This document shows positions 49,741 to 64,000 of a stretch of 64,000 nt of DNA, one piece after another. Made by a program: the position numbers and the translations under genes. The stretch is taken from positions 1,152,001 through 1,216,000 of the forward strand of contig OZ242005.1 in assembly GCA_965204725.1 (NCBI GenBank), written 5' to 3'. Source of the DNA: Candidatus Latescibacterota bacterium. Its GTDB lineage: Bacteria > Latescibacterota > UBA2968 > UBA8231. The notes under the pieces were generated by a model, which did not search any database, had not been told where the DNA came from, and worked only from the letters and a program-made list of their open reading frames with translations. Each line of letters opens with the position of its first letter. Position 1 is the first letter of the stretch.

Positions 49741-49836
49741 GACTTCGTCGTTGAGGCACTACGCCGCGAACTGTTAAGGTGGGTTCTGCAAAAAAATAGG
49801 CGTTGAGGAACGATTAGCGACTAACCGCCGACGCTT

Positions 49837-49869: not shown

Positions 49870-50101
49870 CTTGCGTTCTCAAGTAATCCAGTCCTTGGGG
49901 CGAAAGCTCAAGATAAGACTCTAACTGCCACCGCTCGACCGTGGGGTAATCTTGGAGAAATTCCTCGACAGAGTGCCCCCCTTTGAGATAACTCACTAAA
50001 TTGTCCACCGGGACCCGCGTACCGGTGAAAACCAGATCGCCGCTGTGGATTTCAGGATCTCGTTGGACCACCTTCTCCAGTACAATATCGTTCTGCCCCA
50101 T
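49853..50101 (-). CDS. DUF433 family antitoxin
   Basis: DPEIHSGDLVFTGTRVPV..L...L.GG.SVEEFLQDYPTV. Confidence 0.92.
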   Translation of the reverse strand: MGQNDIVLEKVVQRDPEIHSGDLVFTGTRVPVDNLVSYLKGGHSVEEFLQDYPTVERWQLESYLELSPQGLDYLRTQDASAS

Positions 50102-50103
50102 TC

Positions 50104-51090
50104 CTACCTCGGCACCGGGATGGGCACCGGCACGTTGCCCTGTTTTTGCGACGTTAAAAACCCGATGATCAGCTCTACCACGAGGTGCCCGGCTCGGCCC
50201 GGCGACACCGACTCAACCCCTTGGTCTAAGGCGGCGATGAGTTCGTGGATGCCGGCCGGAATGCCCTCGACCGGCCAAGCCGGCGACGCGAGGGGTTCGG
50301 CCTCTTCGCCGCGATACAGGGTGCCGCCGTCGTTGCCGAGGCGTACTCGCCCGGTGGTGCCGACCACTTCGATTTGCTGCTTGGGCGCGGGCGTGGTCTT
50401 GGAGCCGCCGATGTAAAAGCCCCGCACGCCCTCGGCAAAGTGGATGTACCCATTGGCCCCCGGCTCAGTGGCCGGCACGTGGCCGCCGTCGCCGCGGTAC
50501 TCGGCGTACTCGGCGTATCCTTCCTCCAGCTCGGCCACCACCCACTGCGGCTGCGCGCCCGCGTAGTAGCAAATCGCATCGAGGGTGTGGGTGCCGTTGC
50601 GGAAGAGCATGGCGCGGGGGCCGGCGAGCGTGCCGATGACGTATTGCACCGGGCCGATGACGCCGCGATCGACGATGGCTTCTTTGGCGTGCCGCCACAG
50701 GGGGATAAAGCGCCGGGTGTGATCGACCGACAGGGTGGTGCTGTTGGCGTCGCAAGCGGCGATCATGCGGTCGGCGTCGGCGAGGTTGGTCGCCAGCGGC
50801 TTTTCGCAGAAGATGCCCTTGGCCCCGGCGTTGGCCGCATCGACGACCAAGTCGGCGTGGCGGTGATCCGAGGTGGCGACGGTGACGATGTCCAGCGCTT
50901 CGCGGGCGAGCATCTCGCGGTGGTCGCGGTATAGGGCAGGGGGCGCGTCCGGCCAGCGTTGCTCAAACTCGTGGAGGGTCGCTTCGTCGAGGTCGCAAGC
51001 CGCCACGAGGCGGGCGCGGTCCGACCCGACGATTCCGGTGGCGTGGGCCGTGCCAATGCCGCGGCAGCCAATAACTCCAGCTCGATACAT
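50104..51090 (-). CDS. Gfo/Idh/MocA family oxidoreductase
   Basis: AGVIGCRGIG, CEKP, NGTHTLD; GGAG RBS. Confidence 0.92.
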   Translation of the reverse strand: MYRAGVIGCRGIGTAHATGIVGSDRARLVAACDLDEATLHEFEQRWPDAPPALYRDHREMLAREALDIVTVATSDHRHADLVVDAANAGAKGIFCEKPLATNLADADRMIAACDANSTTLSVDHTRRFIPLWRHAKEAIVDRGVIGPVQYVIGTLAGPRAMLFRNGTHTLDAICYYAGAQPQWVVAELEEGYAEYAEYRGDGGHVPATEPGANGYIHFAEGVRGFYIGGSKTTPAPKQQIEVVGTTGRVRLGNDGGTLYRGEEAEPLASPAWPVEGIPAGIHELIAALDQGVESVSPGRAGHLVVELIIGFLTSQKQGNVPVPIPVPR

Positions 51091-51146
51091 GATTGTGCTC
51101 CTTGTGAAGGGATTTGTGCTGCGAGCAATCCGCCCGAAGCGCTCGA

Positions 51147-52196
51147 TTACCAAGCGCTCTTGAGCTTGCCCCACGTCGCCGGGCGCACGGCCGTCGAAGG
51201 GTCCCACTGCTCGGCGCGCTGCATGAACACCGTGGGGTCGGCGCGCCAATCGCCGTAGCCAATGCGCTGGTTGTCGGTGAGATAGTTGATCTTGTCGTCA
51301 ATGCAGGCCGCGAGGCCGGCGTCCCCTGCGGAGAGGGTGAACCCGCCCTGCTCGGCGCTGGCGTCGAGGGCTGTGACCGCAAACGCGCCGTTGGAAGCGT
51401 GGCTCGCGTCGCGGTTGCCGATTTCGCCGCGGGCGACCGCGTCGATGCGGCCGGCGCCGAGGGCGTCTAGCAGTTCGATCTCGCCGGTCTCTTGCCCGAG
51501 GTACATCACTTGCGGCATGTTGGCCGCGGGCGGGTCCAGCCGCAGCCGCCCTTCGAGGTTGGGCGACGCGCCGGCCGCGGTGATGGTGTAATCGGCCGTG
51601 CCGTCGGCCACGAGCTCGCTGTCGGCTGTTGCGATGCGCGTACCGGCCGCGAGCACGCCGTTGGCATCGACCAAGCCCGTTAGCTCCAGCAGGCGGAACT
51701 CGCCCGTGGTGCCGCTCAGCGCACCCACCCGATCGTCGCTCGTCAGGTCGCTGTGGCGGGCGAGGCGCTCGGCGTCTTCGGCCCGCACCAGCAGCGATTG
51801 CCGAAAGGCTATGTGCCCGGACGTGAAGTTCACGACGTGTTCACCGGCTGCATTGCGGGTGCGAGAGTCGAGGATGGTGATGCCGCCGCCGACCAAGTCG
51901 TACTCCGGCCCGGCCGATTGCAACCATATATCGGGCCACTCGGCGATGGCCCGGCGTTCAAAGGACAATCCCGCGCCGTCCATGGCCTCTAAGGCGGTCA
52001 ACAAGTCCGCTTCGTACCCGCGATGTTCGTTGAACCCGGCCGCGCTCGGCTCTGGGTCTGCGCTGTAGCTGACCGGCTCGAAAAAGGCGTAGAACCCGAC
52101 TTGGAGCACCTGTCCGTCGCCGCAAGCGGCGGCTGAGGACGAGCGAGCCGCCAGCACTAGGAGGAAGAGGGATAGGTAGGAGAAGGATGAGGGCAT
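51147..52196 (-). CDS. Family 3 (amino-acid type) substrate-binding protein with C-terminal WGKLK motif
   Basis: Signal peptide, LQVGF..FEPVSY, GYEADLL, GGITILDSR, VGALSGTTGE; ends TAVRPATWGKLK. Confidence 0.8.
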   Translation of the reverse strand: MPSSFSYLSLFLLVLAARSSSAAACGDGQVLQVGFYAFFEPVSYSADPEPSAAGFNEHRGYEADLLTALEAMDGAGLSFERRAIAEWPDIWLQSAGPEYDLVGGGITILDSRTRNAAGEHVVNFTSGHIAFRQSLLVRAEDAERLARHSDLTSDDRVGALSGTTGEFRLLELTGLVDANGVLAAGTRIATADSELVADGTADYTITAAGASPNLEGRLRLDPPAANMPQVMYLGQETGEIELLDALGAGRIDAVARGEIGNRDASHASNGAFAVTALDASAEQGGFTLSAGDAGLAACIDDKINYLTDNQRIGYGDWRADPTVFMQRAEQWDPSTAVRPATWGKLKSAW

Positions 52197-52263
52197 GTAG
52201 GATACCTCGTTTTTGGCGTGATAAGTAGGAATATGGGCCGGGGAAAGAGGCGGAGCAAACCCT

Positions 52264-53619
52264 TTACTCGGCGTAGGGAACGGTGCCTCGGGCATCTACT
52301 TGGTAGCCCCAGCGTTTGAGGTAGGCGGGGCCGGGGAGGAAGGAGTCGTCGGCTGCGGTGAGGCGGCGCGTTAGATGAGCGTCTAGTTCGTCGAGCACGC
52401 CCTGCTGGCCGGGCTGTCCCACGAGGTTGTCCTGTTGGAAGGGGTCGGCTTCGTTGTCGTAGAGCAGCCACGGCCTCTCTAAGGCGCGCACGTAGGTGTG
52501 GCGGCGGGTGCGCAAGCCCCGGTAGGACCGGCCGCCCACGCCGGTCCACCACTGCCCAAAGGGCTGGGGACACTGCAAGAGCGCGGTGCCGTCTGAGGGA
52601 TCGGGGCCGCCTTGCAGATACCCGGAGAAGTCGATTCCCTCCACGGTGGAAGGAATGGGGAGGCCGCACAGGCCCAACAGGGTCGGCATGATGTCTGGTA
52701 GGTCAATCGGCGCGTCGAGTTGCCGTCCGGCGTCTCCCATCCCTGGGTAGCGCAGCAGGAACGGTACGCGGATGGACTCTTCGTAGGGCTTTTGCTTTTT
52801 GTCCATGCCCTGCGAGCCGAGCATGTCGCCGTGATCCGAGAAGAACAAAAAGATGGTCTCCTGCTCAAGTGCTTCCTCCTGCAAGGTTTGGAGCAACGCG
52901 CCGACGCAGTCGTCTAGGGCCGTGCAATGGGCGTAGTACCCGGCGAGCCATTGCCGGGCACGATCGGCCCAATCGGCCGGCACATTGGGCCGCAGGGCGA
53001 TAGCCGCCGGATCGTATTGGGCTTGGTACGCTTGGGGGGCCGTGTGATAGGGGGCGTGCGGCGGCCCCCACGACAGGACCAGCAAAAAGGGCTTGGTCTC
53101 GCCTGAAGTCCCGCGCTGGCGGATATAGGCTTGGGCGTCGCGGGTCTGGGCCAAGGCGTCGTAGCCTTCCCACACGAGTTGCTCGTCTGAGTCGCCGGCA
53201 TAGTACGCCGAGTGGTTGTAGTTGTGGGTGCATTCGAGGACCTTCCAGTACTCAAAGCCCTGCCGCTGCTCGGGCGGAATATAGCGGCTCCGGCCCCGGC
53301 CATGGACGTGCCACTTGCCGATATAGGCCGTGTCGTACCCGCCCGCGCCAAAAGCCTGCGCGAGGCTCGGAGCGTCTTGGCCCAGCGTTACGTCGTTGAC
53401 GAAGACGCCGTGCGTGAGGGGGTATTGCCCGGTCAGGAGCGAGGCGCGCGCCGGCGAGCACACCGAGCAGCCAGACACCGCGTGGGTGCAGTTGACGCTA
53501 CGGCGGGCGAGCGCGTCTAAGTTGGGGGTTTGCACGTTGGGGTCGCCAGCGTACCCAAAGGCTTGGGCACGCCATTGGTCGGCGAATACGAGGACGACAT
53601 TCGGCGGTTTGCGGGGCAC
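52264..53619 (-). CDS. Formylglycine-dependent sulfatase
   Basis: PNVVLVFADQWR, CSPAR, GKWH, FSDHG, LYDNEADPFQ. Confidence 0.93.
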   Translation of the reverse strand: MPRKPPNVVLVFADQWRAQAFGYAGDPNVQTPNLDALARRSVNCTHAVSGCSVCSPARASLLTGQYPLTHGVFVNDVTLGQDAPSLAQAFGAGGYDTAYIGKWHVHGRGRSRYIPPEQRQGFEYWKVLECTHNYNHSAYYAGDSDEQLVWEGYDALAQTRDAQAYIRQRGTSGETKPFLLVLSWGPPHAPYHTAPQAYQAQYDPAAIALRPNVPADWADRARQWLAGYYAHCTALDDCVGALLQTLQEEALEQETIFLFFSDHGDMLGSQGMDKKQKPYEESIRVPFLLRYPGMGDAGRQLDAPIDLPDIMPTLLGLCGLPIPSTVEGIDFSGYLQGGPDPSDGTALLQCPQPFGQWWTGVGGRSYRGLRTRRHTYVRALERPWLLYDNEADPFQQDNLVGQPGQQGVLDELDAHLTRRLTAADDSFLPGPAYLKRWGYQVDARGTVPYAE

Positions 53620-53730
53620 GGCGCGTCTCCTGCTTGAATGATGTAGGATTGCTATATTATCAACCGTCTAGAACAGCCAATGGGCTGCCACCCATCCACA
53701 TTCTAACTGAGTCAAACGAAACAAAGGAAA

Positions 53731-54105
53731 ATGGCTAACGTCAACGACACGGGGCTTACTCCCTCAACTATCAAACTCAAACGGATAATGGGCACCTCGC
53801 CCGCTTATCGGATGCTGACGCCATACGAAATCGAGCTGCTGCGGAAAAGTCAGGAGGAGGTCGCCGAGGTCGTGGGCCAAATCCTCGCTAAGAAGAACAA
53901 TAACAATAAGGAACCAATGGTGCTAGTGGTTTACAATCCGAACCCCGCGATAGACAACGCGACGAATCCGTTTGCATCGGGTTGTAATTCGTTAGTTATT
54001 AGAGAGAAGCGAGAGCAAATCGACGCAAGCGCGAAAGCCTACCAAGCACCATGGCATAACCCGGTTGTACCCCTTTGGAGTAGTAATGTTAAAAAATTTC
54101 CATAA
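53731..54105 (+). CDS. Small hypothetical protein
   Basis: AAGGA RBS; the first half (MLTPYEIELLRKSQEEVAEVV) looks protein-like, the part after KKNNNNK may be read-through. Confidence 0.4.
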   Translation: MANVNDTGLTPSTIKLKRIMGTSPAYRMLTPYEIELLRKSQEEVAEVVGQILAKKNNNNKEPMVLVVYNPNPAIDNATNPFASGCNSLVIREKREQIDASAKAYQAPWHNPVVPLWSSNVKKFP

Positions 54106-54128
54106 GTTATTGAAAAACAATAAGTTAC
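54101..54128. promoter_or_regulatory. AT-rich palindrome with IHF-like sites on both strands
   Basis: TAAGTTATTG-AAAAA-CAATAAGTTA (9/10 arm complementarity); 21/28 identical to 23923..23950. Confidence 0.55.
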
Positions 54129-54142
54129 CTCCCCCTCCCCCC
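54128..54142 (+). repeat. Interrupted homopolymer CC-T-C5-T-C6 at the frame break between ATG 54086 and the dehydrogenase ORF
   Basis: One extra C joins MLKNFHKLLKNNKLPPPPP to RKIRSRVSAFALLVMLLASAGC. Confidence 0.8.
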
Positions 54143-54177
54143 GCAAAATCCGCTCCCGAGTTTCGGCGTTTGCGCTC

Positions 54178-56361
54178 TTGGTCATGCTGTTGGCATCCGC
54201 TGGCTGCCTGTACGTCAAAAGCCCCCTCGACAAGGTAGAAGCGCGGCGCATCGAATCACCTGCGCTTGGTAGGCCCACCGAAGTCGCCGTTGGTGCTGCC
54301 AACAGACGATTGACCGTCACTTGGCGCGAAATGCCCGGCGCGGCGAGTTACAAGATCGCCGTCAGACCCAAAAACGAACTCGTCCCTACATGGCGCGAAT
54401 ACACGGCGACTTCTGCGCCCTATATTGCGGATAGGTGGGCGATGAGCGGGATAGAGTATGAGGTGCGGGTGGCCACGGTCAACGCCCACGGTCAGTCCGA
54501 GTGGTCGAGCACGGTTTCGATAACAGTCCCCGTACTCCAAGCGGCTCCGTCCGATGCGATTGACATCGCCTCGTCCCCGTTGGTGGGAGAATTCATAGTC
54601 GTTGACTTGCACAGCCAGCGTCCATTTGAGAATAGGTCGGTGTGGCATTGGTTTATTTGCAGCGCGGACGGGCTTGATTGCAAGCTATTGCCGAGGCGTC
54701 GACCCTATCAATCTCAACCGACTTGGGAGTATTTCATGGAGCCGGCCTATGAAGGGAAGCACCTGTCGGTTCAGGTTGACTACGACAAAGAGGGGGGGTC
54801 GTACTCGGCGACGGCGGGGTTAGGCGTCGTCGGGGCCGCCCAGGACCGGGAGCTTACGACGCGGGAGCTTGCGACACCCGACGATGAAGGTGTACAGGGC
54901 CGGGAGCTTGCGACGCACTTGTATGCTCTCGATCTCAATGGGGTCTATTTCCGCTCATGGGAAGGCGAGAGCCGCGGCGCCATCGCGCCGTTGGGCAACG
55001 ACTTGCTCGTGGCCTCGCCGTGGGGGATGCTCGCGCTGGTGCGCCCCAACCGAGCGGTAGCGTATCTCGATGGGAACGTGCCGATGAATGGGGCCGAGTT
55101 CCAAGCGCACCCGGACAAAGCAAATCTCCGCTTACACCAGTTTCGAGTAGCCGACATTTTGTTGAAACAGCACTCGGTGGGGCGGTATGAACTGTTTGTG
55201 ACACATCACTATTTCACCGGCGAGTGCATCCGGTTCCGGTTGTCTGCTACGACGCTCCTGCAACAAGGCGCGGACATTTCGGTATCGCCGGCGTGGAGAA
55301 CGATATTTGATGCGGATCCGTGTGTGAGTGCCGCATCCGAGCAAGCGGGGGGCCGGATGTTGACGGACGGTCCCGACCACTTGTTGGTCGTAATTGGAAC
55401 TCATGGTCAAGACCACTATGCTCAAGATCCGGCCTCGCACTTGGGCAAGCTCGTCCGCATTGAAATCGAGACGGGGCGGGCGTTGATACTGGCCTCCGGC
55501 CTTCGCAATCCGCAGGGGCTAACCCGGGACGCGGCCGGCACCTTGTGGGAGACCGAGCACGGACCGCACGGCGGCGATGAACTCAACATACTGGAACTGG
55601 GTGGCAATTACGGTTGGCCGCAGGTTACGTATGGCATTGAGTCTGGAAGCTGGGTCAAAGTGTCCCGAGTCGAAAAGCTAGGCCGACACGATGGTTTCAC
55701 AAAGCCTGTTTTTTCTTGGCTGCCGTCCATCGGCATCTCCAACCTCGTCGTCAATGACGAGCGATGGTTCCCGCTGTGGGAAGACGACCTGCTGATCGGT
55801 TCGCTTGTCGGCAACGCGCTCTTTCGGGTTCGTCTCGACGGCGCGGCTGTGCAATACGTCGAGCGCATTAAAGTTGGCTATCGGATCCGGGATCTCGCGC
55901 ACATGCCGGACGGACGTATCGCGCTATTAGGCGACGGTGAAAAGGTCTATTTCCTGAGCCGATCCTACGCCTACTGCAACGACGAGGATACGTTGAACCT
56001 CCGCCCCGTCTATGCGGTTGACTGTGCGGCTACGGTGGGGAGCGGTGTTGCGGCTACGGTGGGGGCGGTTGCGGCTACGGGTGCTCAGTTATACGGCACA
56101 CATTGCAGCGGTTGTCACAGCCTGACGGTCGAGAAGCACGGCATAGGGCCGCATCTTGTCGGCGTGGTTGGCCGGCGTGCGGGCGAAGTCAGCGGCTACC
56201 TGTTCTCAGGTGCCCTCCGCTCACTGGACTTGGCGTGGACGCCGACCCACTTGGAACAGTTCTTGGCTGATCCCAAGCAGTTTGCTCCGGGCACATCCAA
56301 GTCGTTGCACATCACCCAAGCCGAAGCCCGCGCCATCGTAGATTTCATCGAGGGCGATTGA
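54178..56361 (+). CDS. FN3 + PQQ-dependent glucose/sorbosone dehydrogenase + cytochrome c fusion; the probable true start (54086) is out of frame
   Basis: FN3 (LTVTW..YEVRVATVNAHGQSEWS), GLRNPQGL, ETEHGPHGGDELN, GNYGWP, RIRDL, heme motif CSGCH..GPHL. Confidence 0.85.
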   Translation: MVMLLASAGCLYVKSPLDKVEARRIESPALGRPTEVAVGAANRRLTVTWREMPGAASYKIAVRPKNELVPTWREYTATSAPYIADRWAMSGIEYEVRVATVNAHGQSEWSSTVSITVPVLQAAPSDAIDIASSPLVGEFIVVDLHSQRPFENRSVWHWFICSADGLDCKLLPRRRPYQSQPTWEYFMEPAYEGKHLSVQVDYDKEGGSYSATAGLGVVGAAQDRELTTRELATPDDEGVQGRELATHLYALDLNGVYFRSWEGESRGAIAPLGNDLLVASPWGMLALVRPNRAVAYLDGNVPMNGAEFQAHPDKANLRLHQFRVADILLKQHSVGRYELFVTHHYFTGECIRFRLSATTLLQQGADISVSPAWRTIFDADPCVSAASEQAGGRMLTDGPDHLLVVIGTHGQDHYAQDPASHLGKLVRIEIETGRALILASGLRNPQGLTRDAAGTLWETEHGPHGGDELNILELGGNYGWPQVTYGIESGSWVKVSRVEKLGRHDGFTKPVFSWLPSIGISNLVVNDERWFPLWEDDLLIGSLVGNALFRVRLDGAAVQYVERIKVGYRIRDLAHMPDGRIALLGDGEKVYFLSRSYAYCNDEDTLNLRPVYAVDCAATVGSGVAATVGAVAATGAQLYGTHCSGCHSLTVEKHGIGPHLVGVVGRRAGEVSGYLFSGALRSLDLAWTPTHLEQFLADPKQFAPGTSKSLHITQAEARAIVDFIEGD

Positions 56362-56480
56362 CCTTTTATAGAAAGCCCCTAAGTTCACGACAGGCGGTCA
56401 TGTCGCTGTGCTTGTTTCTATCGTGGTCATGGGGACGCTCCGTAGCTGAAAGGTGGGATACCCTCAGCGTAGGAACTACC

Positions 56481-56494
56481 TTGACCACGGTCAA
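56481..56494. promoter_or_regulatory. Operator-like palindrome upstream of cas3
   Basis: TTGACC-AC-GGTCAA, 33 nt before ATG 56528; the left arm is also -35-like. Confidence 0.45.
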
Positions 56495-56527
56495 CATACT
56501 AGCACCATTAGTTAAGGAATAGGGCAC

Positions 56528-57597
56528 ATGACCTTCGATCAATTTTTCTCCGCAGCATTCGGCAAAGACCTTAGCCCTTTTGCCTATCAGCAAGCACTCG
56601 CAAATCGGGCTTGGCCGGACGCGCTCATCGCTCCGACTGGACTTGGCAAGACCGCCGCAGTGGTGCTCGGCTGGGCTTGGCAGCACATCGTTGACGAACA
56701 CGCGCCTCCGCGTCGCTTGGTCTATTGCCTGCCCATGCGTACGCTCGTTGATCAGACAGAGCGGAATGTCAAAGAATGGTTGCGCCGGCTAGGTGAGGCC
56801 GACCCGCACTGGAAATCGCGCCTCCCGGGTCCCAACACCGGAGTCCATGTCCTTATGGGGGGATGGGGGGCATGGATGAGCCGCGCTGGTTTGAAAAACC
56901 CGAACATCCGGCCATCCTGATTGGGACCCAAGACATGCTGCTCAGTCGCGCCCTGATGCGGGGGTACGCCATGAGTCGCTTCCGCTGGCCGGTAGATTTC
57001 GCGTTGCTGCACAATGACGCGCAGTGGGTCTTTGACGAGGTGCAACTCATGGGCTCGGGGTTGGCGACCTCCACGCAACTTGAAGGTTTTCGCCGCAAAT
57101 TGGGGATGGAGATTGCCTCGCGCAGTCTCTGGGTGTCGGCAACCCTTCATCCAGACTGGCTAGACACGGTTGATTTCAAGCAAAGTCCGAAGGTTTGGCG
57201 CGTTCCAGACGACTTCCCCGAAGACGCGCAATCGCCGCATGTCCGCAAGCTGATTGACGCGCCCAAGCCGATTCAGCAGGCGTCCGTTGCGCCAGTGAGT
57301 GCCAAGAAGGCCGATCTGGCTGCTTACGCTACGGCATTGGCGGATGAAACGCTGCGGCTGCATCGAGAAAACCGCACGACGCTCGTGGTGGTCAACACCG
57401 TCGCCCGCGCTCAAGCTGTGCATAAGGCTCTCCAGAAAAAGGAGCCGCCCGCTCACCTCGCCCTCATTCACTCGCGTTTTCGGCCCCAAGATCGCAAAGC
57501 GCAGATGGACAAGCTGCCAGAGCCTGGGGAGGCGAAAGACTTGATCGTCGTTGCGACACAGGCGATTGAAGCGGGTGTCGATCTTTCGGCGGCGGTA
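56528..57597 (+). pseudogene. cas3: Type I-G (I-U) Cas3 helicase, frameshifted and 3'-truncated
   Basis: APTGLGKT, PRRLVYCLPMRTLV, GTQDMLLSRAL.RGY.MSR.RWP..F.LL.NDA.WVFDEVQLM, VVVNTV, HSRFR, VATQAIEAGVDLS. An 8-bp duplication ATGGGGGG (56855-56870) shifts the frame; motif VI and the HD domain are missing. Confidence 0.88.
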
Positions 57598-57650
57598 GCT
57601 TGCGCCGACGCGGGACGAGCTTTGTGCAGTTCCGATAAGGCGAGCCCGGG

Positions 57651-57686
57651 ATTTCCGGGGAGGAAACGTCCCGGCCTCATTGAATT
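57651..57686 (+). CRISPR. Solitary type I-G-like CRISPR repeat 1
   Basis: ATTTCCGGGGAGGAAACGTCCCGGCCTCATTGAATT: 36 nt, CCGGG/CCCGG stem, 3' end GGCCTCATTGAA as recalled for I-G repeats; about 55 nt from the cas3 break. Confidence 0.72.
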
Positions 57687-57830
57687 TGACCAAATCAATA
57701 AACCCCAAGATGCTGGACCAAGCCCTTTGCTAAACGGATTTGTTCAAGATTGATGGGAGTGTTAGGTTATAAAATCACCTAGGCTCAAGAATTTATAGAA
57801 CCTCAATTAAAAAAGTCGTAGATAGCAAAA

Positions 57831-60434
57831 ATGGAACATTTCGAGGAGTACCTTGATAGCCTCGGCTCAAGTAAATTTCGGCAGCTCTGGCCAACTCAGA
57901 AGCATGTCTTGGACGACTATAGTACTCAGTTCTTGGATGCTAAGGATGTCGCCATCGAGCTCCCAACGGGGGCTGGAAAGACGTTGATAGCATTGCTCGT
58001 TGGGGGGAAATGGCTCGAAAAAGGGAAGAAAGTAGTCATCTTGTCGGCGAACAAGACTCTAGCTCGCCAAATGAATGCGGAGGCCGAAGCACTTGGGCTG
58101 AAGGTAGCGTACATGGAAGGACGTGGTGAAGATATTCCGGCTAAAAAACGGCGGTCTTATCAGCGTGCCAAAGCGATCGGAATCATGAACTACTGGGTCT
58201 ATTTCAATCAGAGCCCAGTAGTTGACCCTGCCGACCTTGTAGTGATGGACGACGCGCATCTAGCGGAGCATTGTCTAGATTCGCTTTACTCCATCATGAT
58301 TAGCCGGAAGTACCATAAGGATCTCTTTGAGCAGCTCGTCCGAGAACTTCACGAGCGCTTTCCTGACTATGCTATCTTGGCAGACGCGGTTGCGGATGAC
58401 GTGCCGCCGGATACGCCAGCAGACCTGCTTTCGTTCATTGACCATGCAGAGTTTGTGGGTCGTCTCAAAGAAAATATCGATGCATCTCCGTTGTTAAGTT
58501 CAGACACAGACCTGAATTTTCGCTGGAATCGTCTTCGCAAAAGAGTCCACATTGCGAATTTCTATATTGGACGGGATGCCCTCTGGCTGCGCCCATACGT
58601 CTATCCGCTTATCGAAAACGAATACTATCAAGACACGACGCAAGTTCTCTATATGAGTGCCACAATTGGCGACCCAGGTGATTTGGCACGTCGCTTGGGA
58701 ACTCGACCAATCCAGAAGATCCAGGTTCCGGCACACTTAGCGGACCGCAGTTCCGGTAGACGCCTAATCGTGATGAATAAAACAAGTGACGACTCGGACA
58801 TTCCGGATCAGATGGCTCTTGCGCTTCTCAACGCCATCCGCGTTCATCGCAAAAGCGTTTGGCTGTGTACGAGTGAACGCGAGGCAAGCCATTTCAGCAA
58901 AGTAGTGAAGGAGTGGCTTAAAAAAAACAGTTGTACCGACCATCCGACATGGATTTTGACGCCACTCGGAGATGAGATTGATCGATTCCGTCAGGCACCC
59001 ATTGGTCATCTTTTCGTAGCAGGACGTTTCGATGGAATGGACTTCAAAGACGATGAATGTCGGATCGTCGTTATAGCCACTATACCAAGGGCTATCAACC
59101 TTCAGGAGGAATTCATTACGAGCCATCTGCGCGATAGCGGCTTCATGCGCCAACGCCTCAATCAGCGTATTGTTCAGGGTCTCGGGAGATGCACAAGGGC
59201 TGAAGGTGATTTTGGAGTCTATTTTTTAGCCGACCAGAGATTTGCTACTCATTTCTCTCGCGAGGCCAACCGAGGTGGAATTCCTCAACACATCGCGACA
59301 GAGTTGGACCTCGCCCAAGATTTAGCTGAGCTAGGAGAACACGAACTCGTGACGTACGTCACGACATTTCTCAGTGGCGATTTCACCACTTACGATGACG
59401 AACTCGCTGAGCTCCAAGAAGAGGCTATACCACCTCAAGAAAAGGGTACTATTTCCGACACATCCAAAGACGAGGTGATTGGTTGGTCTGCGCTGTTTGA
59501 AAGCGAGAATTTCGAGGTTGCCCAGCAGTGCTTTGAGCGATGCTGGGAAACTGCTAAGGCAGATGACAATCTCCTCGAAATAGCGGCTCTACACGGATGG
59601 CATCGAGCTAAGGCGATTTATCTTGAAGGACTTCGTGGGAATCGAGGAGCTTTGGAACAAGCTTTCCGAGTGCTGGAAGAGGCAATTCAACGCGGGGGGC
59701 AAAGGCCTTGGTTCAACCGGATGCGCGGCTCGCTCAATCGAGTACGCAATCAAGAAAATGCTGACGAAACTGTCATTAAGCGAGAATACGCTGAGGAAGT
59801 GATTCATCGTTTCGATGAACAGCTTGAACGCTGTGGGACGTCGGGGCCAAAGTTCCAAAAATTTGTTAAACGCCTCGAATCAAGACTGAAATCAGAAAGT
59901 CACGCAGAGTATCAGGAGGGCCTAGAGACTCTCGGATCTCTGCTTGGTTTCCGAGCACAACGCCCCCAACGTGGTACGCTAGCCGATTGCACATGGCGCG
60001 GCGACTTCGGTAACTCTCGGGAGTTGATTATTTTCGAGGCGAAGATCGAGCACGAGCCTTCAAACTCGATCACGCTCGGCCACTTGGGGCAGGCCCATGG
60101 ACAGTTCAGTAGAGCCAAAGAAAGATATGAGACGTTGGGCTATTCAGTCCGAGCAGTGGTGGTCACCCATCTCAATCAGTTAGCTTCCGATGCTCAATCA
60201 TCTGTGGGGCCGATCAAATTTCTCCAGAAGGATATTGTGCTAGCACTCTGGAGTAGGGTTAGTGGCATCCTGACGGCGTATCGTTCTCGCTGGAGCGTCG
60301 ATGATGTTCGAGCACAGAGAGACGCTGCGACGACTATCAGACCTCGTCTTCCCGATACTGGCTGGATTTTGCGGGCCTTAGATAGTGCGGATCCTTGGCT
60401 CTCGAAAGCTGACATCCTGAAGGAATGGGGCTAA
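57831..60434 (+). CDS. SF2 (DinG/Rad3-like) helicase with C-terminal PD-(D/E)XK nuclease; Hna-like antiphage protein
   Basis: LPTGAGKT, DDAH, MSAT, RFDGMDF, QGLGRCTR, C-terminal ADCTW...IIFEAK; 867 aa; lower GC. Confidence 0.75.
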   Translation: MEHFEEYLDSLGSSKFRQLWPTQKHVLDDYSTQFLDAKDVAIELPTGAGKTLIALLVGGKWLEKGKKVVILSANKTLARQMNAEAEALGLKVAYMEGRGEDIPAKKRRSYQRAKAIGIMNYWVYFNQSPVVDPADLVVMDDAHLAEHCLDSLYSIMISRKYHKDLFEQLVRELHERFPDYAILADAVADDVPPDTPADLLSFIDHAEFVGRLKENIDASPLLSSDTDLNFRWNRLRKRVHIANFYIGRDALWLRPYVYPLIENEYYQDTTQVLYMSATIGDPGDLARRLGTRPIQKIQVPAHLADRSSGRRLIVMNKTSDDSDIPDQMALALLNAIRVHRKSVWLCTSEREASHFSKVVKEWLKKNSCTDHPTWILTPLGDEIDRFRQAPIGHLFVAGRFDGMDFKDDECRIVVIATIPRAINLQEEFITSHLRDSGFMRQRLNQRIVQGLGRCTRAEGDFGVYFLADQRFATHFSREANRGGIPQHIATELDLAQDLAELGEHELVTYVTTFLSGDFTTYDDELAELQEEAIPPQEKGTISDTSKDEVIGWSALFESENFEVAQQCFERCWETAKADDNLLEIAALHGWHRAKAIYLEGLRGNRGALEQAFRVLEEAIQRGGQRPWFNRMRGSLNRVRNQENADETVIKREYAEEVIHRFDEQLERCGTSGPKFQKFVKRLESRLKSESHAEYQEGLETLGSLLGFRAQRPQRGTLADCTWRGDFGNSRELIIFEAKIEHEPSNSITLGHLGQAHGQFSRAKERYETLGYSVRAVVVTHLNQLASDAQSSVGPIKFLQKDIVLALWSRVSGILTAYRSRWSVDDVRAQRDAATTIRPRLPDTGWILRALDSADPWLSKADILKEWG

Positions 60435-60612
60435 TATGCTGGTCAGAAAGCAGGAGGTAATAAGGGCAAGCGGTTTGGACTTTTGTTGTCTTTAGAGGTG
60501 GAAGAAGTTGTGAATGAATATACGTTCTGGTTTGAGGTACGAGACATGTCGGCGTCGAGTTCCTCTTGCATGGAGGAGTTGATTGTTAAGGTACTGCATT
60601 CCAGAAACACTG

Positions 60613-60648
60613 ATTTCTGGATCAGTCCCGCCTCGCCTTCATTGAAGC
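60613..60648 (+). CRISPR. Degenerate type I-G-like CRISPR repeat 2
   Basis: ATTTCTGGATCAGTCCCGCCTCGCCTTCATTGAAGC: 36 nt, same orientation, 22/36 ungapped identity to repeat 1, canonical ATTGAAGC end, stem lost. Confidence 0.5.
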
Positions 60649-60720
60649 GTGCGATAGGTCTGGCTATATTGGAGGCCGCTTTGCAATCGCCAAAATTGCG
60701 CCACCCGCGCCTCATTCGCC

Positions 60721-61512
60721 ATGAACGACCTCGAAACGCTACAATACCTATTCGATGTGCAGGGCTATCTGGTGCTCGAAAATGTCCTCGACGCCGGGGA
60801 AGTGGCCGCCCTCAACGACTTGCTCGACGCGCACCTGCCGCCGGCCAAGGGCAACCGCTTTGGGGCCGCCCCCAGCGGCTCGGGCTTTTTGGACTGGGGC
60901 CAGCCCTTCATTGACCTGCTCGACCATCCCCAAATCATGCCCGTGTTGCGCTTCCGCTTGGGCGATTGCTTTCGCCTCGACCGGATCTACGGCTTGTGCC
61001 TGCGCCACGGCATGGCCAGAGGCAGCTTGCACTGCGACTACGGCCCCACGTCGCCCACCTCCGGGGCGCAGCCGGGCCAGTACCACCCCCTGCGCGACAA
61101 CCAAATCCTCAACGGCTTTGTCGTGGCAACTTGGAACTTGACCGACGCCGGGCCGGACTACGGCGGCTTTTGCTGCATTCCCGGTAGCCACAAGAGCCAT
61201 TTCAAACTGCCGCAACCCATTGCCGACGCGCCTGAACAAGCCCCCTGCGTGATCATCCCCTCGGCCCCGGCTGGCTCTGTTACTTTGTTTTCCGAAGCCC
61301 TGACCCACGGGACGACCGCTTGGCGCGGGCACCACCAGCGACGCGCCTTGCTCTACAAATACTGCGTCTCGCAAATGGCTTGGACCAACAGGCGCGTACA
61401 ACGGCCGGCCGACCTAACCCAGCGGCAGCACCTGCTCTTTGGCGAGCCGGCGGATCCGCACCGCTTTTTCCCCTCGCTCTTTGCCGGCGTAGATGAGGGG
61501 CCGAGCGCGTGA
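60721..61512 (+). CDS. PhyH family dioxygenase
   Basis: FDVQGYLVL, LHCD, GGFCCIPGSHK, EALTHG. Confidence 0.9.
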   Translation: MNDLETLQYLFDVQGYLVLENVLDAGEVAALNDLLDAHLPPAKGNRFGAAPSGSGFLDWGQPFIDLLDHPQIMPVLRFRLGDCFRLDRIYGLCLRHGMARGSLHCDYGPTSPTSGAQPGQYHPLRDNQILNGFVVATWNLTDAGPDYGGFCCIPGSHKSHFKLPQPIADAPEQAPCVIIPSAPAGSVTLFSEALTHGTTAWRGHHQRRALLYKYCVSQMAWTNRRVQRPADLTQRQHLLFGEPADPHRFFPSLFAGVDEGPSA

Positions 61513-61577
61513 GGTCAAGGCCGCTCCCCATCCGATCAAATTAGCACACTGCCTTCACCCATTTCGACGAGGTTCCA

Positions 61578-62363
61578 ATGACCCCCGAACAAGCCCTAGC
61601 AAAACGCCAACAGTTATTGCGCGACGGATTCTGCGTCGTCGATCACATTCTCAGCGACGAATTCCTAGGGGAATTGCGCGACGAGACCGAGCGCATGATG
61701 GAGGACTGGGTGCCGCCGCCCGACTTCAAGTACCAAGGCCAGCACGTCACCGCACGCGGCGAGGACAACCCGACTATCCAGAAATTGCTCGACTGGCCCC
61801 CCACGCGCCGCGCCCTCGACCAAATGGGCTTGGGCGACTTTGCCAGCACGGGCGGCATTATTCTGCTAACGAAAGACCCGGGCGAACCGGCCCTGTATTG
61901 GCACCAAGATTGGATGCAGTGGAACGATCCGTTGAGTTGTTCGCCGTGGCCGCAGATCATTTTTGTGTCCTACTACTTGAGCGATACCTCGCCGGAAAAC
62001 GGCTGTCTCAAAGTCATCCCCGGTACGCACCACAAGCGCGTCCCGCTGCACGATGAAATGGTGCCGGCCCACGAGCAAGGGGCGCGTTTTATAGAAGAAG
62101 ACCACCCAACCATGTTCAGCGATCACCCCGACCAAGTCGATGTCTGCGTCAAGGCCGGCGACTTGGTGCTGGCCGACGCCCGCGTCCTGCACTCGGCGTA
62201 TCGCAACCAGACGGACGAGCGCCGCACGTTGGTGCTGGCTTGGCACCGACGCCCCGAGACCGTTCCCGCTTATTGGACCGACCCCGTGCCGGCCATCATC
62301 GCCGCCCGCGATCCGAAAAAGGAATACCCCGGCTCGCGCATCCCCGGCGAGCTCTTGCAATAG
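61578..62363 (+). CDS. PhyH family dioxygenase
   Basis: RDGFCVV, WHQD, ENGCLKVIPGTH, LHSAYRN. Confidence 0.92.
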   Translation: MTPEQALAKRQQLLRDGFCVVDHILSDEFLGELRDETERMMEDWVPPPDFKYQGQHVTARGEDNPTIQKLLDWPPTRRALDQMGLGDFASTGGIILLTKDPGEPALYWHQDWMQWNDPLSCSPWPQIIFVSYYLSDTSPENGCLKVIPGTHHKRVPLHDEMVPAHEQGARFIEEDHPTMFSDHPDQVDVCVKAGDLVLADARVLHSAYRNQTDERRTLVLAWHRRPETVPAYWTDPVPAIIAARDPKKEYPGSRIPGELLQ

Positions 62364-62384
62364 CAAAATCCAACATGGCCTCTT

Positions 62385-63185
62385 ATGAATCGGTATTCTG
62401 TTGGATACGATGAGCGCACGGTCCGTTTCTTGGCGGACCGCACCGCCGATACGCACGCTCAGTTCCTGCTGGAGTACCTCGCTCCCGGGATGGACCTCTT
62501 GGACGGTGGCTGTGGGCCTGGGACCATAACCAAGGGGCTGGCGGCGATCGTGGCCCCGGGGCGCGTCGTAGGCGTGGACCGAGAACAGAGCCAAATTGCT
62601 CGTGCCCAGTCCCTCGCCGATAGGTCCGCCGCGATTGAGTTCAGAACCGACGATCTGTGCCGCCTGACTGCGGACGACGAGTCGTTTGATGTCGTCTTTG
62701 TCCACGGAGTCCTAGAGCACATCGCCAACCCAGCAGAAGCCCTCCTTGAGATGCGCCGAGTGCTAAAATCGGGCGGACTGGTCGGCTCAAGACACGCCGA
62801 CTTCGGGGGGTTCCTGCTCGAACCCACGCCAGAGCCGCTCGGGCAATTCGCGCCGTTGTTCATTGAGTTGATGAAACGAAATGGGGGCGACCCGTACTTT
62901 GGCCGTCGCCAGTTGGGGCTATTCCGCGAGGCGGGATTCGAGATACTCAAGGTTTCCGCGTCGTACGACTGTTGGACATCGGATGCGGACGCCACGCGGA
63001 AAAACGCGCGCTTTCTTGCGGAGTTGTGCGGGGACTCTGAATTCTCTGATCAGCTTGTGGAATACGGACTAGCGGACAAACGAACCTTGGAGCAGCTAAA
63101 GTCCTCGTTCCTCAGATGGGGGGCGATGCCAGAGGCGTTTGCGGCCGAAGCATGGGGGGAGATCGTCGCTAAGAAGCGTTCTTAA
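62385..63185 (+). CDS. Class I SAM-dependent methyltransferase
   Basis: LLDGGCGPG, SFDVV, VLEH, EMRRVLKSGG. Confidence 0.92.
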   Translation: MNRYSVGYDERTVRFLADRTADTHAQFLLEYLAPGMDLLDGGCGPGTITKGLAAIVAPGRVVGVDREQSQIARAQSLADRSAAIEFRTDDLCRLTADDESFDVVFVHGVLEHIANPAEALLEMRRVLKSGGLVGSRHADFGGFLLEPTPEPLGQFAPLFIELMKRNGGDPYFGRRQLGLFREAGFEILKVSASYDCWTSDADATRKNARFLAELCGDSEFSDQLVEYGLADKRTLEQLKSSFLRWGAMPEAFAAEAWGEIVAKKRS

Positions 63186-63228
63186 CACTCCTGTTGCTCT
63201 TGGCTCGTCTTGCCTGACGACGCGAGGG

Positions 63229-63255
63229 GTCATTCTCGCGAAAGCGGGAATCCAG
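63229..63255. repeat. dRS3/REP-like palindromic element, copy 2
   Basis: GTCATTCTCGCGAAAGCGGGAATCCAG. Confidence 0.8.
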
Positions 63256-63287
63256 CGCCTTGGCCAATCCGCCCTTGGTCGGCCTGT

Positions 63288-63315
63288 CGTCATTCCCGCG
63301 CACGCGGGAATCCAG
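63288..63315. repeat. dRS3/REP-like palindromic element, copy 3
   Basis: CGTCATTCCCGCGCACGCGGGAATCCAG. Confidence 0.85.
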
Positions 63316-63356
63316 TCTTGAAGGATGTAGGATGGCTATAGGTACGCGTTTAAGGG

Positions 63357-63641
63357 GTGAATATGAAGACTCTATGGGACATTGTATGGGAGATTGTCGG
63401 CAGAATAGCGTTTGATGGTGTTCCTTCTCTTTTTAGGCGCGACCTGCCCAAACCCATTCATCGACTGCGGCTAGCAGCATGGACCGTCGTGATTGCTGGC
63501 GCAGTATTATTTTTTTTAACGGATGTGCCCTCATTAGCGGCGCATAGACGCTTGCTCAAAAGCGCGGTCCTTGGCGGCTTGGTCCTTTTTGTCGCGCTCT
63601 TGGTAGCCATGACTCTTCTCGGCAAAAGGTGGAAGCGATAA
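63357..63641 (+). CDS. Small hypothetical membrane protein (2 TM)
   Basis: Two hydrophobic stretches and a basic C-terminus; start 63357 or 63363. Confidence 0.55.
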   Translation: MNMKTLWDIVWEIVGRIAFDGVPSLFRRDLPKPIHRLRLAAWTVVIAGAVLFFLTDVPSLAAHRRLLKSAVLGGLVLFVALLVAMTLLGKRWKR

Positions 63642-63740
63642 GGGCGTTTCCAACTCAATAGCAAGTGGGCTACGGCCAAGCGTGTGCATTTTTCGGGGCA
63701 CCCCGACCCAAGACGAAGACATGAGCTGTCAGGCGTACGC

Positions 63741-63797
63741 AAAGGCGTGGTCGTCCAGACTGCTTTGAGGTTCGCAGCGTAGGACAACCACGCCTTT
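63741..63797. terminator. Long hairpin between convergent genes, probable bidirectional terminator
   Basis: AAAGGCGTGGTCGTCC ... GGACAACCACGCCTTT (15/16 complementary). Confidence 0.6.
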
Positions 63798-63824
63798 CTC
63801 GTCGAAGCGGCTGGCGCGCTCAAC

Positions 63825-63998
63825 TTACTCTGCGTTGGCCTCGATCAAGACCTGAATTTTTACTTCATCCCCGAGCACGGCGCTGAAGCGTTCCCAACTA
63901 TTGACTCCGTAGTCGGAGCAGAGCACTGAAAAATTCGTTTCTAGGCCGATCTGCGCCTTGCCGTTGCGCGGATTGGTGCCGGTGCCGAGGATCTCGAC
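63825..63998 (-). CDS. YceI family protein, C-terminal part (5' end outside the window)
   Basis: Manual translation ...IGLETNFSVLCSDYGV...LGDEVKIQVLIEANAE* matches the YceI C-terminus. Confidence 0.7.
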   Translation of the reverse strand, partial: VEILGTGTNPRNGKAQIGLETNFSVLCSDYGVNSWERFSAVLGDEVKIQVLIEANAE

Positions 63999-64000
63999 GG

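Follow-up and report, generated by a model that had tools for sequence, protein, structure and literature searches.

An Hna-like helicase-nuclease gene in the slot of a decayed type I-G CRISPR-Cas locus

An intact gene for a helicase-nuclease lies between two solitary CRISPR-like repeats, next to a broken cas3, in the 64-kb window analyzed here (the whole 64,000-nucleotide stretch), which raises the question of whether the repeats brought the gene in, once controlled it, or are debris of the system that stood there before. The broken cas3, the two 36-nt repeats, and the helicase-nuclease open reading frame were all found at the positions given in the first-pass annotation, and the identity of the two repeats, R1 and R2, recounted from the sequence, was 22/36 as it had stated. 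The locus comprises the following features:

52264-53619, minus strand: sulfatase gene, left syntenic anchor of a variable slot (Pfam Sulfatase, E 5.2e-52)
54178-56361, plus strand: glucose/sorbosone dehydrogenase (GSDH)-cytochrome c gene (Pfam GSDH, E 6.6e-51, and Cytochrom_C)
56422-56515, no strand given: dispersed repeat element of about 93 nt, directly before the cas3 start (nine BLAST hits in its own genome, including itself)
56528-57651, plus strand: cas3g pseudogene, residues 1-356 of 819, with a duplication, an internal deletion, and a truncation
57651-57686, plus strand: R1, true array repeat (32/36 to the genus consensus)
57677-60450, plus strand: putatively acquired cassette, including an upstream (promoter) region of about 150 nt (82% to islands in genomes G013 and G002; query 2178-4951)
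57831-60434, plus strand: intact Hna-like/PDC-S28 helicase-nuclease gene (PADLOC, Pfam, and Hna chain 10uj_A)
60435-60612, no strand given: stretch of 178 nt between the helicase-nuclease gene and R2
60613-60648, plus strand: R2, fossil repeat with its hairpin lost (25/36 to the consensus)
60649-60686, plus strand: fossil spacer of 38 nt, conserved
60687-60720, plus strand: R3, further repeat remnant ending at the PhyH start codon, recognized by alignment only
60721-61512, plus strand: PhyH-family dioxygenase gene, right syntenic anchor (Pfam PhyH, E 9.4e-13)

Both anchors recur in relatives: the sulfatase gene borders the slot in seven of them and in genome G019, and the PhyH protein is 90 to 94% identical in 16. 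Comparison of the locus across relatives bore out the reading of a destroyed type I-G locus, since intact type I-G cas genes and an array fill the same slot there. In G019, for example, the order is sulfatase, glyoxalase, cas3g, cas8g, cas7g, cas5/6g, cas10, csm2, csm3, csm4, csx1, cas4/1g, cas2g, 13 repeats, and PhyH; in several relatives, the type I-G locus is joined to a type III-A module. The repeat family is present in 13 of the 31 genus genomes, as arrays in nine and as single copies in four. Here, the spot of the relatives' glyoxalase gene, which was not found in 48000-64000, is occupied by the GSDH-cytochrome c gene, which has paralogues at 78 to 83% elsewhere in its own genome. The dispersed element also has copies in several relatives and is without an Rfam match. 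The sulfatase-PhyH slot is a hotspot for defence and toxin-antitoxin genes in this genus.

What remains of cas3g could be followed step by step. PADLOC Cas3g matched 56528-56920 (E 2.2e-35) and 56863-57753 (E 2.6e-94), and between them these matches account for positions 1-325 of the 733-position profile and no more, confirming that cas3 is broken. The remnant consists of residues 1-114, an 8-nt duplication, residues 112-356, a deletion of 405 nt, another 55 nt of cas3, and the truncation. The frameshift results from a tandem duplication of ATGGGGGG at 56855-56870 (relative to G019), which is missing from the strains in public runs X4 and X5. The internal deletion has its junction at 57596/57597: 56513-57596 is 93.6% identical to G019 cas3 at the nucleotide level, while 57597-57651 maps 405 nt further along cas3 in both G019 and G013. 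The junction between cas3 and R1 coincides exactly with the first base of R1, where random deletion ends would fall in only about 3% of cases. In the remainder of the genome, tblastn with 11 G019 Cas proteins retrieved the cas3 remnant only; the type I-G components cas8g, cas7g (csb1), cas5/6g (csb2), and the adaptation module were not found, nor was a Pfam Cas1 domain, a CRISPR array (k-mer scan), or a further copy of R1 at up to three mismatches. The claim that there are no further cas genes and no spacer array was thus upheld in its own genome, although, as this genome is 94% complete, an unassembled cas locus is a formal possibility.

We compared both repeats with a consensus built from the arrays of G013, G023, G001, and G019, which adjoin cas3g, cas8g, cas7g, cas5/6g, cas4/1g, and cas2g. 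Both belong, as had been proposed, to this type I-G array family, the repeats of which end in CCTCATTGAAGC. The family repeat is a stem-loop followed by an 8-nt handle, ATTGAAGC. R1 has a hairpin weakened by two changes in the stem and the handle ATTGAATT, its last two bases being TT and not GC, while R2 has the handle and no hairpin (energies of -11.4 kcal/mol for R1, -1.7 for R2, and -16.9 for the consensus). R1 was the sole Rfam hit in 56400-60800, to CRISPR-DR16 (RF01330), at 22.9 bits (E 0.059) against a gathering cut-off of 35 bits; all 13 repeats of G019 match the same model at 29.2 to 35.7 bits, two of them at or above 35. R2 gave no Rfam hit. Among the 36-mers of the window, the next best after R1 and R2 reached 22/36 to the consensus, and when the window was shuffled 100 times by a Markov model, 25/36 was never attained. 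The two lie 2962 nt apart and do not form a regular repeat-spacer array. R2 stands exactly where the G019 array has its last repeat, degenerate solitary repeats occur at the same spot in G022, G011, G020, G006, G003, and G010, and R2 is conserved even in genomes without cas genes. R3 is barely recognizable here (less than 19/36 to the consensus), the aligned stretch in relatives reaching 22 to 26/36. R1 is probably a relic without present function, and R2 is an older, genus-wide fossil, not a duplicated repeat.

The persistence of R2 across much of the genus would be explained by its apparently now being part of the neighboring promoter. Its 3' end, TTGAAG (60642-60647), resembles a -35 box, and the fossil spacer holds a -10-like TATATT (60665-60670); TTGAAG-N17-TATATT is found 79 to 83 nt upstream of the PhyH ATG in 11 of 17 genomes examined. 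The call is a 9/12 match to the promoter consensus, in a region not enriched for such matches (4 versus 3.0 expected). Judged by these motifs, PhyH probably draws its -35 box from the 3' end of R2 and its -10 box from the spacer beside it. A repeat and a spacer of CRISPR origin would thus have taken on a new role as the promoter of a neighboring gene, which would explain how a lone repeat outlived its system.

The cassette stands out from its surroundings by a GC content of 0.45 to 0.53, versus 0.57 to 0.65 in the flanks. Close orthologues of the gene (81% amino acid identity) were found in just two other genomes of the 31, G013 and G002, where they lie after a dus gene in a 5.1-kb island that has the same upstream region and no repeat. 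Homology to this island begins within the last 10 nt or so of R1. The dS to these orthologues is 0.52 to 0.56, compared to 0.26 for PhyH versus G019, and dN/dS is 0.20 to 0.22. On the other side of the gene, 60435-60612 had no match among the other 30 genus genomes, and its open reading frames gave no Pfam hit. Among 79 homologue loci from many phyla, none had an array within 6 kb, in a scan that detected five of five control arrays, and PADLOC matches, including BREX, Septu, Menshen, Shedu, and AbiE, flanked the gene at 12 of 16 homologue loci.

The 867-aa open reading frame is free of stops, and PADLOC gave PDC-S28 (PDLC04987) as its best-fitting family model (E 1.9e-88; residues 13-824 on profile positions 31-813 of 846), with PDLC04986 at E 2.6e-72. 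Pfam placed DEAD, ResIII, and Helicase_C_2 in the protein. Hna was its best match of solved structure (chain 10uj_A, E 2.6e-21, and E 7.5e-33 for the helicase half). In the helicase part, GxGKT (G47-G49-K50-T51) and DDAH (D140-D141-A142-H143) are invariant. As a lone single sequence, the C-terminal domain gave no hit; with the C-terminal profile A2, Hna 664-781 was the top structure-bank match (E 0.0011). D719, E736, and K738, invariant in 28/28 and 17/17 sequences, align with Hna D713, E727, and K729, so that the catalytic lysine is aligned and the label "Hna-like" is fair; substitution K729A abolishes the exonuclease activity of Hna (PMC13381803). By sequence, the 867-aa protein is a distant, colinear homologue of Hna across its helicase part as well as at its D/ExK nuclease motif. 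A rhizobial plasmid protein scoring 1111 bits on PDC-S28 is related to Hna at E 6.9e-53, and PDC-S28 and Hna are therefore members of a single superfamily. The PDC families are predictions drawn from the context of defence islands and are not known to have been tested. PDC-S28, an untested PADLOC candidate, is hereby linked to the biochemically solved Hna, and hundreds of uniform proteins of about 867 aa from many phyla are thereby given a testable mechanism.

Taking every step together, we consider it likely that the locus reflects defence-gene turnover in this hotspot and that the repeats are relics. The slot would ancestrally have held a type I-G CRISPR-Cas locus with an array reaching the PhyH promoter. 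In the present lineage, a horizontally acquired cassette would have entered the trailer-proximal part of this array, bringing a single gene together with its promoter; the encoded protein would join a DinG-type helicase to a PD-(D/E)XK nuclease. A deletion of at least 13 kb would have removed everything from mid-cas3 to the first base of R1, and the cas3 stump would have decayed further afterwards. By analogy with Hna, the gene may act alone, as an ATP-restrained 3'-5' ssDNA exonuclease, and its release by a phage factor such as SSB would, if homology is a guide, lead to abortive infection. On this reading, the locus is a well-preserved but ordinary replacement of one defence system by another, which overturns no current views. 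It is of value as a dated series of steps, their order readable through strain variants, in which an adaptive immune locus gave way to an innate and probably abortive-infection gene within one slot.

We weighed whether the cassette arrived through the repeats themselves, namely, as kilobase-sized DNA inserted like a spacer by the Cas4/1-Cas2 integrase, or by recombination or site-specific integration at the repeat 3' end (TCATTGAA); R1 and R2 would then mark the mechanism of arrival and not mere debris. We regard this as unlikely, though toxin-antitoxin cassettes between repeats in relatives keep it in play. In G023, a 765-nt toxin-antitoxin cassette fits without gaps between two repeats in an array of 93, and G011 carries two inserts between three repeats, one with a fragment of the small open reading frame that follows the G013 orthologue. 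Besides this recurring cargo, the exact cas3/R1 junction hints at repeat-linked arrival, as do a second repeat-boundary junction, where R2 begins, and CCTGATTGAATC (10/12 to the repeat 3' end) in the empty dus site of the own genome; the junction between R1 and the cassette also falls inside TCATTGAA, and the orthologous island begins with CTTCATTTAAC. For foreign DNA that targets arrays, precedents exist in phage PhiAP1.1 (10.1101/2020.10.09.333658) and Tn7-like elements (PMC11837452). Neither the 2.9 kb here nor the 5.1-kb island was found to contain an integrase or transposase, however, and no direct repeats were found to flank the dus island. The opening 40 nt of the G023 cassette belong to cassette DNA that G014 also has, not at the edge of a repeat there, and in G021, G006, and G014, other junctions run through R2 itself. 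New spacers integrate at the leader end of an array, not beside the terminal repeat, and R1 and R2 share only 22/36 positions, R2 being older than the event, unlike a duplicate made by spacer integration. The first-pass picture of a 2.9-kb spacer fits the layout but is not a demonstrated mechanism: the last two bases of R1 are not repeat bases, island homology starts inside R1, and R2 is an old fossil. It seems to us quite improbable that the CRISPR repeats of this genus serve, in general, as places where kilobase-sized cassettes of defence and toxin-antitoxin genes land or are exchanged, somewhat like integron attC sites, through Cas4/1-Cas2 or repeat-3'-end recombination. If they were, the Hna-like gene between R1 and R2, the G011 inserts, and the 765-nt unit in the working array of G023 would be products of one process. 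The recurrence of inter-repeat cassettes in relatives is the sole point here that could open something new.

Compared to turnover with relic repeats, it is disfavored and very improbable that the gene outlived a CRISPR supervisor, in the manner of CRISIS or CreTA, a crRNA-like RNA from R1 or R2 having once let Cascade repress its promoter. This had been the other proposal of the first-pass annotation, and it was not borne out. The order cas3, defence gene, solitary repeat does resemble the type I-C CRISIS layout of cas3, defence genes, SRU, and cas5c (10.1101/2024.12.27.630466); here, however, the adjacency of cas3 and the gene is a deletion product, because cas8g follows cas3g in the intact operon. 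G013 has a degenerate mini-array within its cas operon, but the spacer of this mini-array is unmatched in the promoter of the G013 gene copy. The effector (Cascade) genes were not found in the 94% complete genome, and the spacer-like sequences that follow R1 and lie on either side of R2 match 57560-57860 at no more than 9 to 10 of 15 seed positions, a chance level (shuffles averaged 9.3 to 9.4, with a maximum of 12). In Cascade-bearing G013 and G002, the orthologues lie elsewhere without repeats, and the weakened hairpin of R1, the absent hairpin of R2, and the conservation of R2 where cas genes are lacking also argue against supervision.

An assembly chimera joining gene and CRISPR remnants in this assembly only has a probability close to nil, in spite of an estimated contamination of 10% in the source genome and GC steps at both cassette edges, since independent assemblies of sequencing runs from other studies contain contigs that bridge every junction. 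The arrangement is genuine and does not stem from assembly: contigs cover 57227-61600 with 69 differences (X5), 57622-61600 (X4), and 56858-58148 with zero differences (X3), and strains diverged by about 1.5% share identical junctions.

Among known systems, Hna of Sinorhizobium meliloti (PDB 10UJ/9YKJ) is, at about 850 aa, likewise a single-gene system and shares the architecture that we read here from sequence, namely, a pair of DinG-like SF2 helicase domains at the N-terminus and a PD-(D/E)XK nuclease at the C-terminus. With 78.7 bits across 472 aligned residues, it is a weak match, and a rhizobial relative showed 21.8% identity by tblastn. Hna is described as an abortive-infection phage defence and an ATP-inhibited 3'-5' ssDNA exonuclease (PMC13381803). 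CRISIS (type I-C) and CreTA resemble the locus in that a defence gene adjoins cas3 and a solitary repeat; they differ in that Cascade, a spacer-to-promoter match, and a PAM-flanked target were not found here, and the CreTA toxins are small RNAs, not proteins (PMC9458426). Array-inserting mobile elements (PhiAP1.1 and array-targeting Tn7-like transposons) also place kilobases of foreign DNA between repeats, but have their own integrase or transposase and defined ends, neither of which was found for this cassette. The repeats themselves resemble degenerate terminal repeats and the orphan repeats that decayed CRISPR loci leave behind. R2 and R3 come from the trailer end and have mutated, and R1 alone survives of a deleted array; unlike such repeats, R2 has been kept across much of the genus, also in members that have lost all their cas genes.

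The first-pass annotation had read this part of the window as the relic of a type I-G CRISPR locus holding an Hna-like gene. The observation is confirmed and both identities were right, while the coupling that it drew between the gene and CRISPR is wrong or unproven. The broken cas3 gene consists of two overlapping open reading frames, 56528-56920 and 56863-57753, which match the PADLOC Cas3g model (E 2.2e-35 and 2.6e-94, respectively) and jointly correspond only to profile positions 1-325 of 733. Its lesions, referred to the intact 819-aa cas3g of the related genome G019, and the features that follow are listed here.

cas3g stump, part 1: residues 1-114, ended by a frameshift from the 8-nt tandem duplication ATGGGGGG (56855-56870)
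cas3g stump, part 2: residues 112-356
cas3g stump, part 3: internal 405-nt deletion, junction at 57596/57597
cas3g stump, part 4: 55 further cas3 bases, running gapless into the CRISPR repeat at 57651
57651-57686: first repeat, R1
57677-60450: acquired cassette
57831-60434, plus strand: Hna-like gene, 867 aa, within the cassette
60613-60648: second repeat, R2
60687-60720: repeat remnant, R3
60721-61512: PhyH gene

The 867-aa frame is open throughout, as had been stated, and the 178 nt 3' of it gave zero matches in the 30 other genomes of the genus. GC content is 0.45 to 0.53 over about 57600-60750 and 0.57 to 0.65 in the flanks on either side. Downstream of the PhyH gene, at 61578-63185, genes for another PhyH-family protein and for a class I methyltransferase look like a small metabolic operon apart from defence.

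That a type I-G locus was destroyed here is borne out by relatives that hold intact I-G genes and an array before PhyH. In G019, the order from the sulfatase gene is glyoxalase, cas3g, cas8g, cas7g, cas5/6g, short cas10, csm2, csm3, csm4, csx1, cas4/1g, cas2g, 13 repeats and PhyH. Such hybrid loci (L013, which is G019 2007-17295, and also L014, L015 and L029) consist of type I-G effector genes, then genes like those of a type III-A set (a short cas10 of 519 aa, csm2, csm3, csm4 and csx1) and, after that, a single cas4/1-cas2 pair and a single array, apparently used by both effector types. Between cas5/6g and cas10, G013 (L014, reverse strand, 6982-7900) and G014 (L029, 1698-2600) have a mini-array of two degenerate repeats and one spacer, after which come a fragment of an HTH gene and a pair of antitoxin and PIN genes; this mini-array could be a crRNA-like regulatory unit.

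The slot between the sulfatase and PhyH genes is variable: in cas-less relatives its content comprises a glyoxalase gene, PIN and Gp49/HTH toxin-antitoxin pairs, and an AAA-ATPase/PDDEXK_9 gene. Our genome is without the glyoxalase gene and has in its place a dehydrogenase-cytochrome c gene (54178-56361) and a dispersed repeat of about 93 nt (56422-56515). The former has several paralogues at 78 to 83% nucleotide identity, some of them tandem-clustered (contig C1, 3.20 Mb and 4.54 Mb); the latter has 9 BLAST hits in the same genome, further copies in relatives, high contig depth in other sequencing runs and no match in an Rfam search. The absence of other cas genes and of a spacer array, noted from the window, extends to the whole genome (94% complete): tblastn with 11 Cas proteins of G019 returned the cas3 stump only, a domain search found no Cas1, and the candidates from a k-mer scan for arrays were LRR and ankyrin coding repeats.

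When 40 relatives were searched at the DNA level, several genomes proved to contain the R1 sequence many times at a spacing of about 73 nt, and these copies invariably lay directly upstream of the PhyH orthologue. The arrays of G019, G013, G023 and G001 (13, 25, 93 and 19 repeats) have the 36-nt consensus ATTTCCGGGGTGGAAACGCCCCGGCCTCATTGAAGC, and G014 and G002 likewise carry arrays. When the genus was surveyed with a 31-nt core at no more than 2 mismatches, 13 of 31 genomes had it, nine as arrays and four, ours included, as a single copy. The claim of two CRISPR-like repeats in the same orientation thus holds against this consensus, with 32/36 identities for R1 and 25/36 for R2; the best other 36-mer of the window has 22 identities, 25/36 was not reached in any of 100 Markov shuffles of the window, and 36-mers scoring at least 22 averaged 1.6 per shuffle (20 shuffles). 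The sole Rfam match in 56400-60800 was that of R1 to CRISPR-DR16, at 22.9 bits and under the 35-bit cut-off, a family that 13 of 13 G019 repeats match at 29 to 36 bits. The R1 hairpin (-11.4 kcal/mol) is weaker than that of the consensus (-16.9) because two substitutions fall in the stem, and the fold of R2 is lost (-1.7). Homology to the array trailer of G013, G002, G014 and G011 was looked for directly after R1, and the alignment showed none.

When the DNA upstream of PhyH was aligned for ten relatives, R2 coincided exactly with the terminal repeat of the array in G019, and the next 38 nt (GTGCGATAGGTCTGGCTATATTGGAGG...) are conserved between the two. Degenerate solitary repeats occupy this spot in G022, G011, G020, G006, G003 and G010, and the 3' half alone remains in G021, G006 and G014. 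Relatives carry one more degenerate repeat (R3, 22 to 26/36) about 74 nt beyond this spot, ending at the PhyH start codon; its counterpart in our genome scores below 19/36 and is traceable by alignment alone. The apparent trailer is thus itself a fossil spacer, with a fossil repeat on either side. Scanning for consensus elements gave a sigma-70-like promoter with its -35 element, TTGAAG (60642-60647), in the 3' end of R2 and, after 17 nt, its -10 element, TATATT (60665-60670), in the fossil spacer. This pair lies 79 to 83 nt before the PhyH ATG in 11 of the 17 genomes examined and is absent from G013, G023, G001, G007, G002 and G008. R2 was probably retained through becoming part of the predicted PhyH promoter, for which the scan, with 4 sites in the region against 3.0 expected, is weak evidence. 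In the window, the promoter-like pair (60642-60670) stands 50 nt before the PhyH start, and the 5' untranslated region, as far as 60720, is taken up by the repeat remnant.

The order of events could be read from contigs of other public sequencing runs (X3 to X5); of 16 runs listed as holding this sequence, none was of RNA. The X5 contig (57227-61600, 69 differences, 2 gaps) takes in the internal cas3 deletion, the join of cas3 to R1, the cassette and R2; the X4 contig spans 57622-61600 with 58 differences and the X3 contig 56858-58148 with zero. The 8-nt duplication is polymorphic: the X4 and X5 strains are without it, yet they share the truncation. Arrival of the cassette, the large deletion and the 405-nt deletion therefore predate the strain split, and the frameshift is recent. 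Since dN/dS of the stump against G019 is still 0.15, cas3 was inactivated recently relative to its divergence from G019.

The 867-aa protein matches the PADLOC model PDC-S28 (E 1.9e-88, residues 13-824), and none of the matching PADLOC models was named Hna. Pfam gave DEAD, ResIII and Helicase_C_2, and NCBIfam only weak DinG, XPD and Csf4 helicase matches, far under their cut-offs. A protein database yielded 569 relatives at E <= 1e-10 of 8000 scored; among the 120 listed, nearly all are 863 to 884 aa long and align end to end. Invariant in an alignment of 28 sequences are G47, G49, K50 and T51 of Walker A, D140-D141-A142 (with H143 almost invariant), and D719, E736 and K738. Compared with solved structures, the profile of this alignment found one strong relative, 10uj_A (E 7.5e-33, positions 22-510). 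The depositors of 10UJ and 9YKJ identify the protein as the 845-aa Hna of Sinorhizobium meliloti, in which a PD-(D/E)XK nuclease accompanies two SF2 helicase domains; it is a 3'-5' ssDNA exonuclease held as an ATP-bound auto-inhibited dimer, released by phage SSB and made nuclease-dead by K729A (PMC13381803). Pairwise alignment to Hna (E 2.6e-21) included a weak second stretch that pairs D719, E736 and K738 with its D713, E727 and K729. Searched as one sequence and not as a profile, the last 367 aa had no significant match in the structure bank or Pfam; a C-terminal profile of 17 sequences, taking in relatives at 20 to 23% identity, had Hna 664-781 as top match in the whole structure bank (E 0.0011), and a PD-(D/E)XK fold is predicted. 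A rhizobial plasmid protein scores 1111 bits on PDC-S28 and is related to Hna at E 6.9e-53. Together these comparisons place PDC-S28 and Hna, as judged from sequence, in one superfamily and justify the name Hna-like.

Close orthologues (81% amino acid identity) occur elsewhere only in G002 and G013 among the 76 genomes searched in the family, and G001 and G010 have relatives at 26%. In G013 and G002, the orthologue shares its upstream region of about 150 nt with our gene and is part of a 5.1-kb island that follows a dus gene; at the corresponding site our genome has a 47-nt intergenic stretch. A defined mobile element was considered at this site and rejected, as the island replaces the 47-nt stretch without direct repeats; Pfam gave no significant family for two small ORFs and a 519-aa ORF of the G013 island. 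Between the gene copies dN/dS is 0.20 to 0.22 and dS 0.52 to 0.56, twice the 0.26 of PhyH against G019, suggesting that each copy was acquired separately and is under selection. Searched within 6 kb, none of 79 loci of gene relatives from many phyla had an array, control arrays being recovered in 5 of 5 cases. PADLOC, given 114 of 132 flank ORFs (the other 18 were short, 94 to 156 aa), found no cas effector genes around 16 homologue loci and other defence matches (E <= 1e-8) around 12, including NsnB/C and PtuA; DrmD, PglZ and BrxL; SduA; AbiEi/Eii; and PDC-M33A-C; four had none. The Hna-like gene is thus a typical wandering defence-island gene. Distant relatives (<31% identity) occur on 151 plasmid records; viral contigs gave 1 weak relative among 35 pattern matches, and a phage-borne origin is not evident. 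On a record labelled Ktedonobacteraceae, one homologue (L038, 8695-14533) adjoins TnsB/TnsC/TniQ-like genes and may be cargo of a Tn7-like transposon.

Whether the repeats themselves took part in capturing the cassette has to be weighed against a plain island swap. The join of cas3 to R1 is exact to one base, and cas-less G011 (L022, 15022-16190) keeps three repeats spaced by two inserts, one of 317 nt holding the 3' part of a small ORF that comes after the orthologous gene in G013, and one of 743 nt holding a Gp49/HTH toxin-antitoxin pair. In G023 (L015, 16470-17306), a 765-nt antitoxin-PIN unit sits flush between repeats 90 and 91 of 93; this unit recurs directly beside R2 in G003 and G012, and G013 and G014 have it in the interval between their mini-array and cas10. 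At the empty dus site of our genome (C1:739715-739763), the sequence CCTGATTGAATC agrees with the 3' end of the repeat at 10 of 12 positions (p about 0.003, a rough post-hoc estimate). The exact join, these inserts and the dus-site match keep the explanation in play. Foreign DNA is known to enter arrays by way of a repeat-integrating phage (10.1101/2020.10.09.333658) and Tn7-like elements (PMC11837452), but these are reported to carry their own recombinases. We therefore regard repeat-linked capture as unlikely, and its boldest form, in which CRISPR repeats are landing sites for cassettes, as slightly more doubtful still. The G023 unit lies near the trailer end of its array, which has cas genes beside it, and G001 shares terminal spacers with G023 without having the unit. 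A decayed repeat at the left end of the G013/G002 island was also sought: no 36-mer of L003 or L004 reached 22/36, the last 10 nt or so alone being repeat-like.

The proposal that the gene sits between its repeats like a 2.9-kb spacer fits the layout; against it speak the end of R1, where the last two bases are TT instead of GC, the start of the homology to the G013/G002 island at 57677, inside TCATTGAA, and the age of R2, which predates the arrival of the cassette. A Cascade-supervised cargo was the other proposal. In CRISPR-supervised immunity (CRISIS), the defence genes lie between cas3 and a solitary repeat, with cas5c after the repeat, and the spacer-like portion of the repeat unit base-pairs with the promoter of the defence genes at a site flanked by a PAM (10.1101/2024.12.27.630466). 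Here, three stretches of 36 to 38 nt, one following R1 and one on each side of R2, were compared with 57560-57860 and match at 9 to 10 of 15 seed positions (shuffled spacer-like sequences: average 9.3 to 9.4, maximum 12), and the G013 mini-array spacer does no better against the promoter of that genome's own gene copy. With no Cascade in the genome, R1 damaged and R2 hairpin-less, present-day supervision is excluded and past supervision unsupported.

What remains is a wandering defence gene set into a dead CRISPR locus. Set beside Hna (845 aa), the 867-aa protein matches strongly in the helicase part and, in the C-terminal part, at the E value of 0.0011 obtained with the profile; by analogy it may work by an Hna-type mechanism. 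The case adds to kinds already known, namely decayed CRISPR loci, swaps within defence islands and genes of the Hna superfamily.
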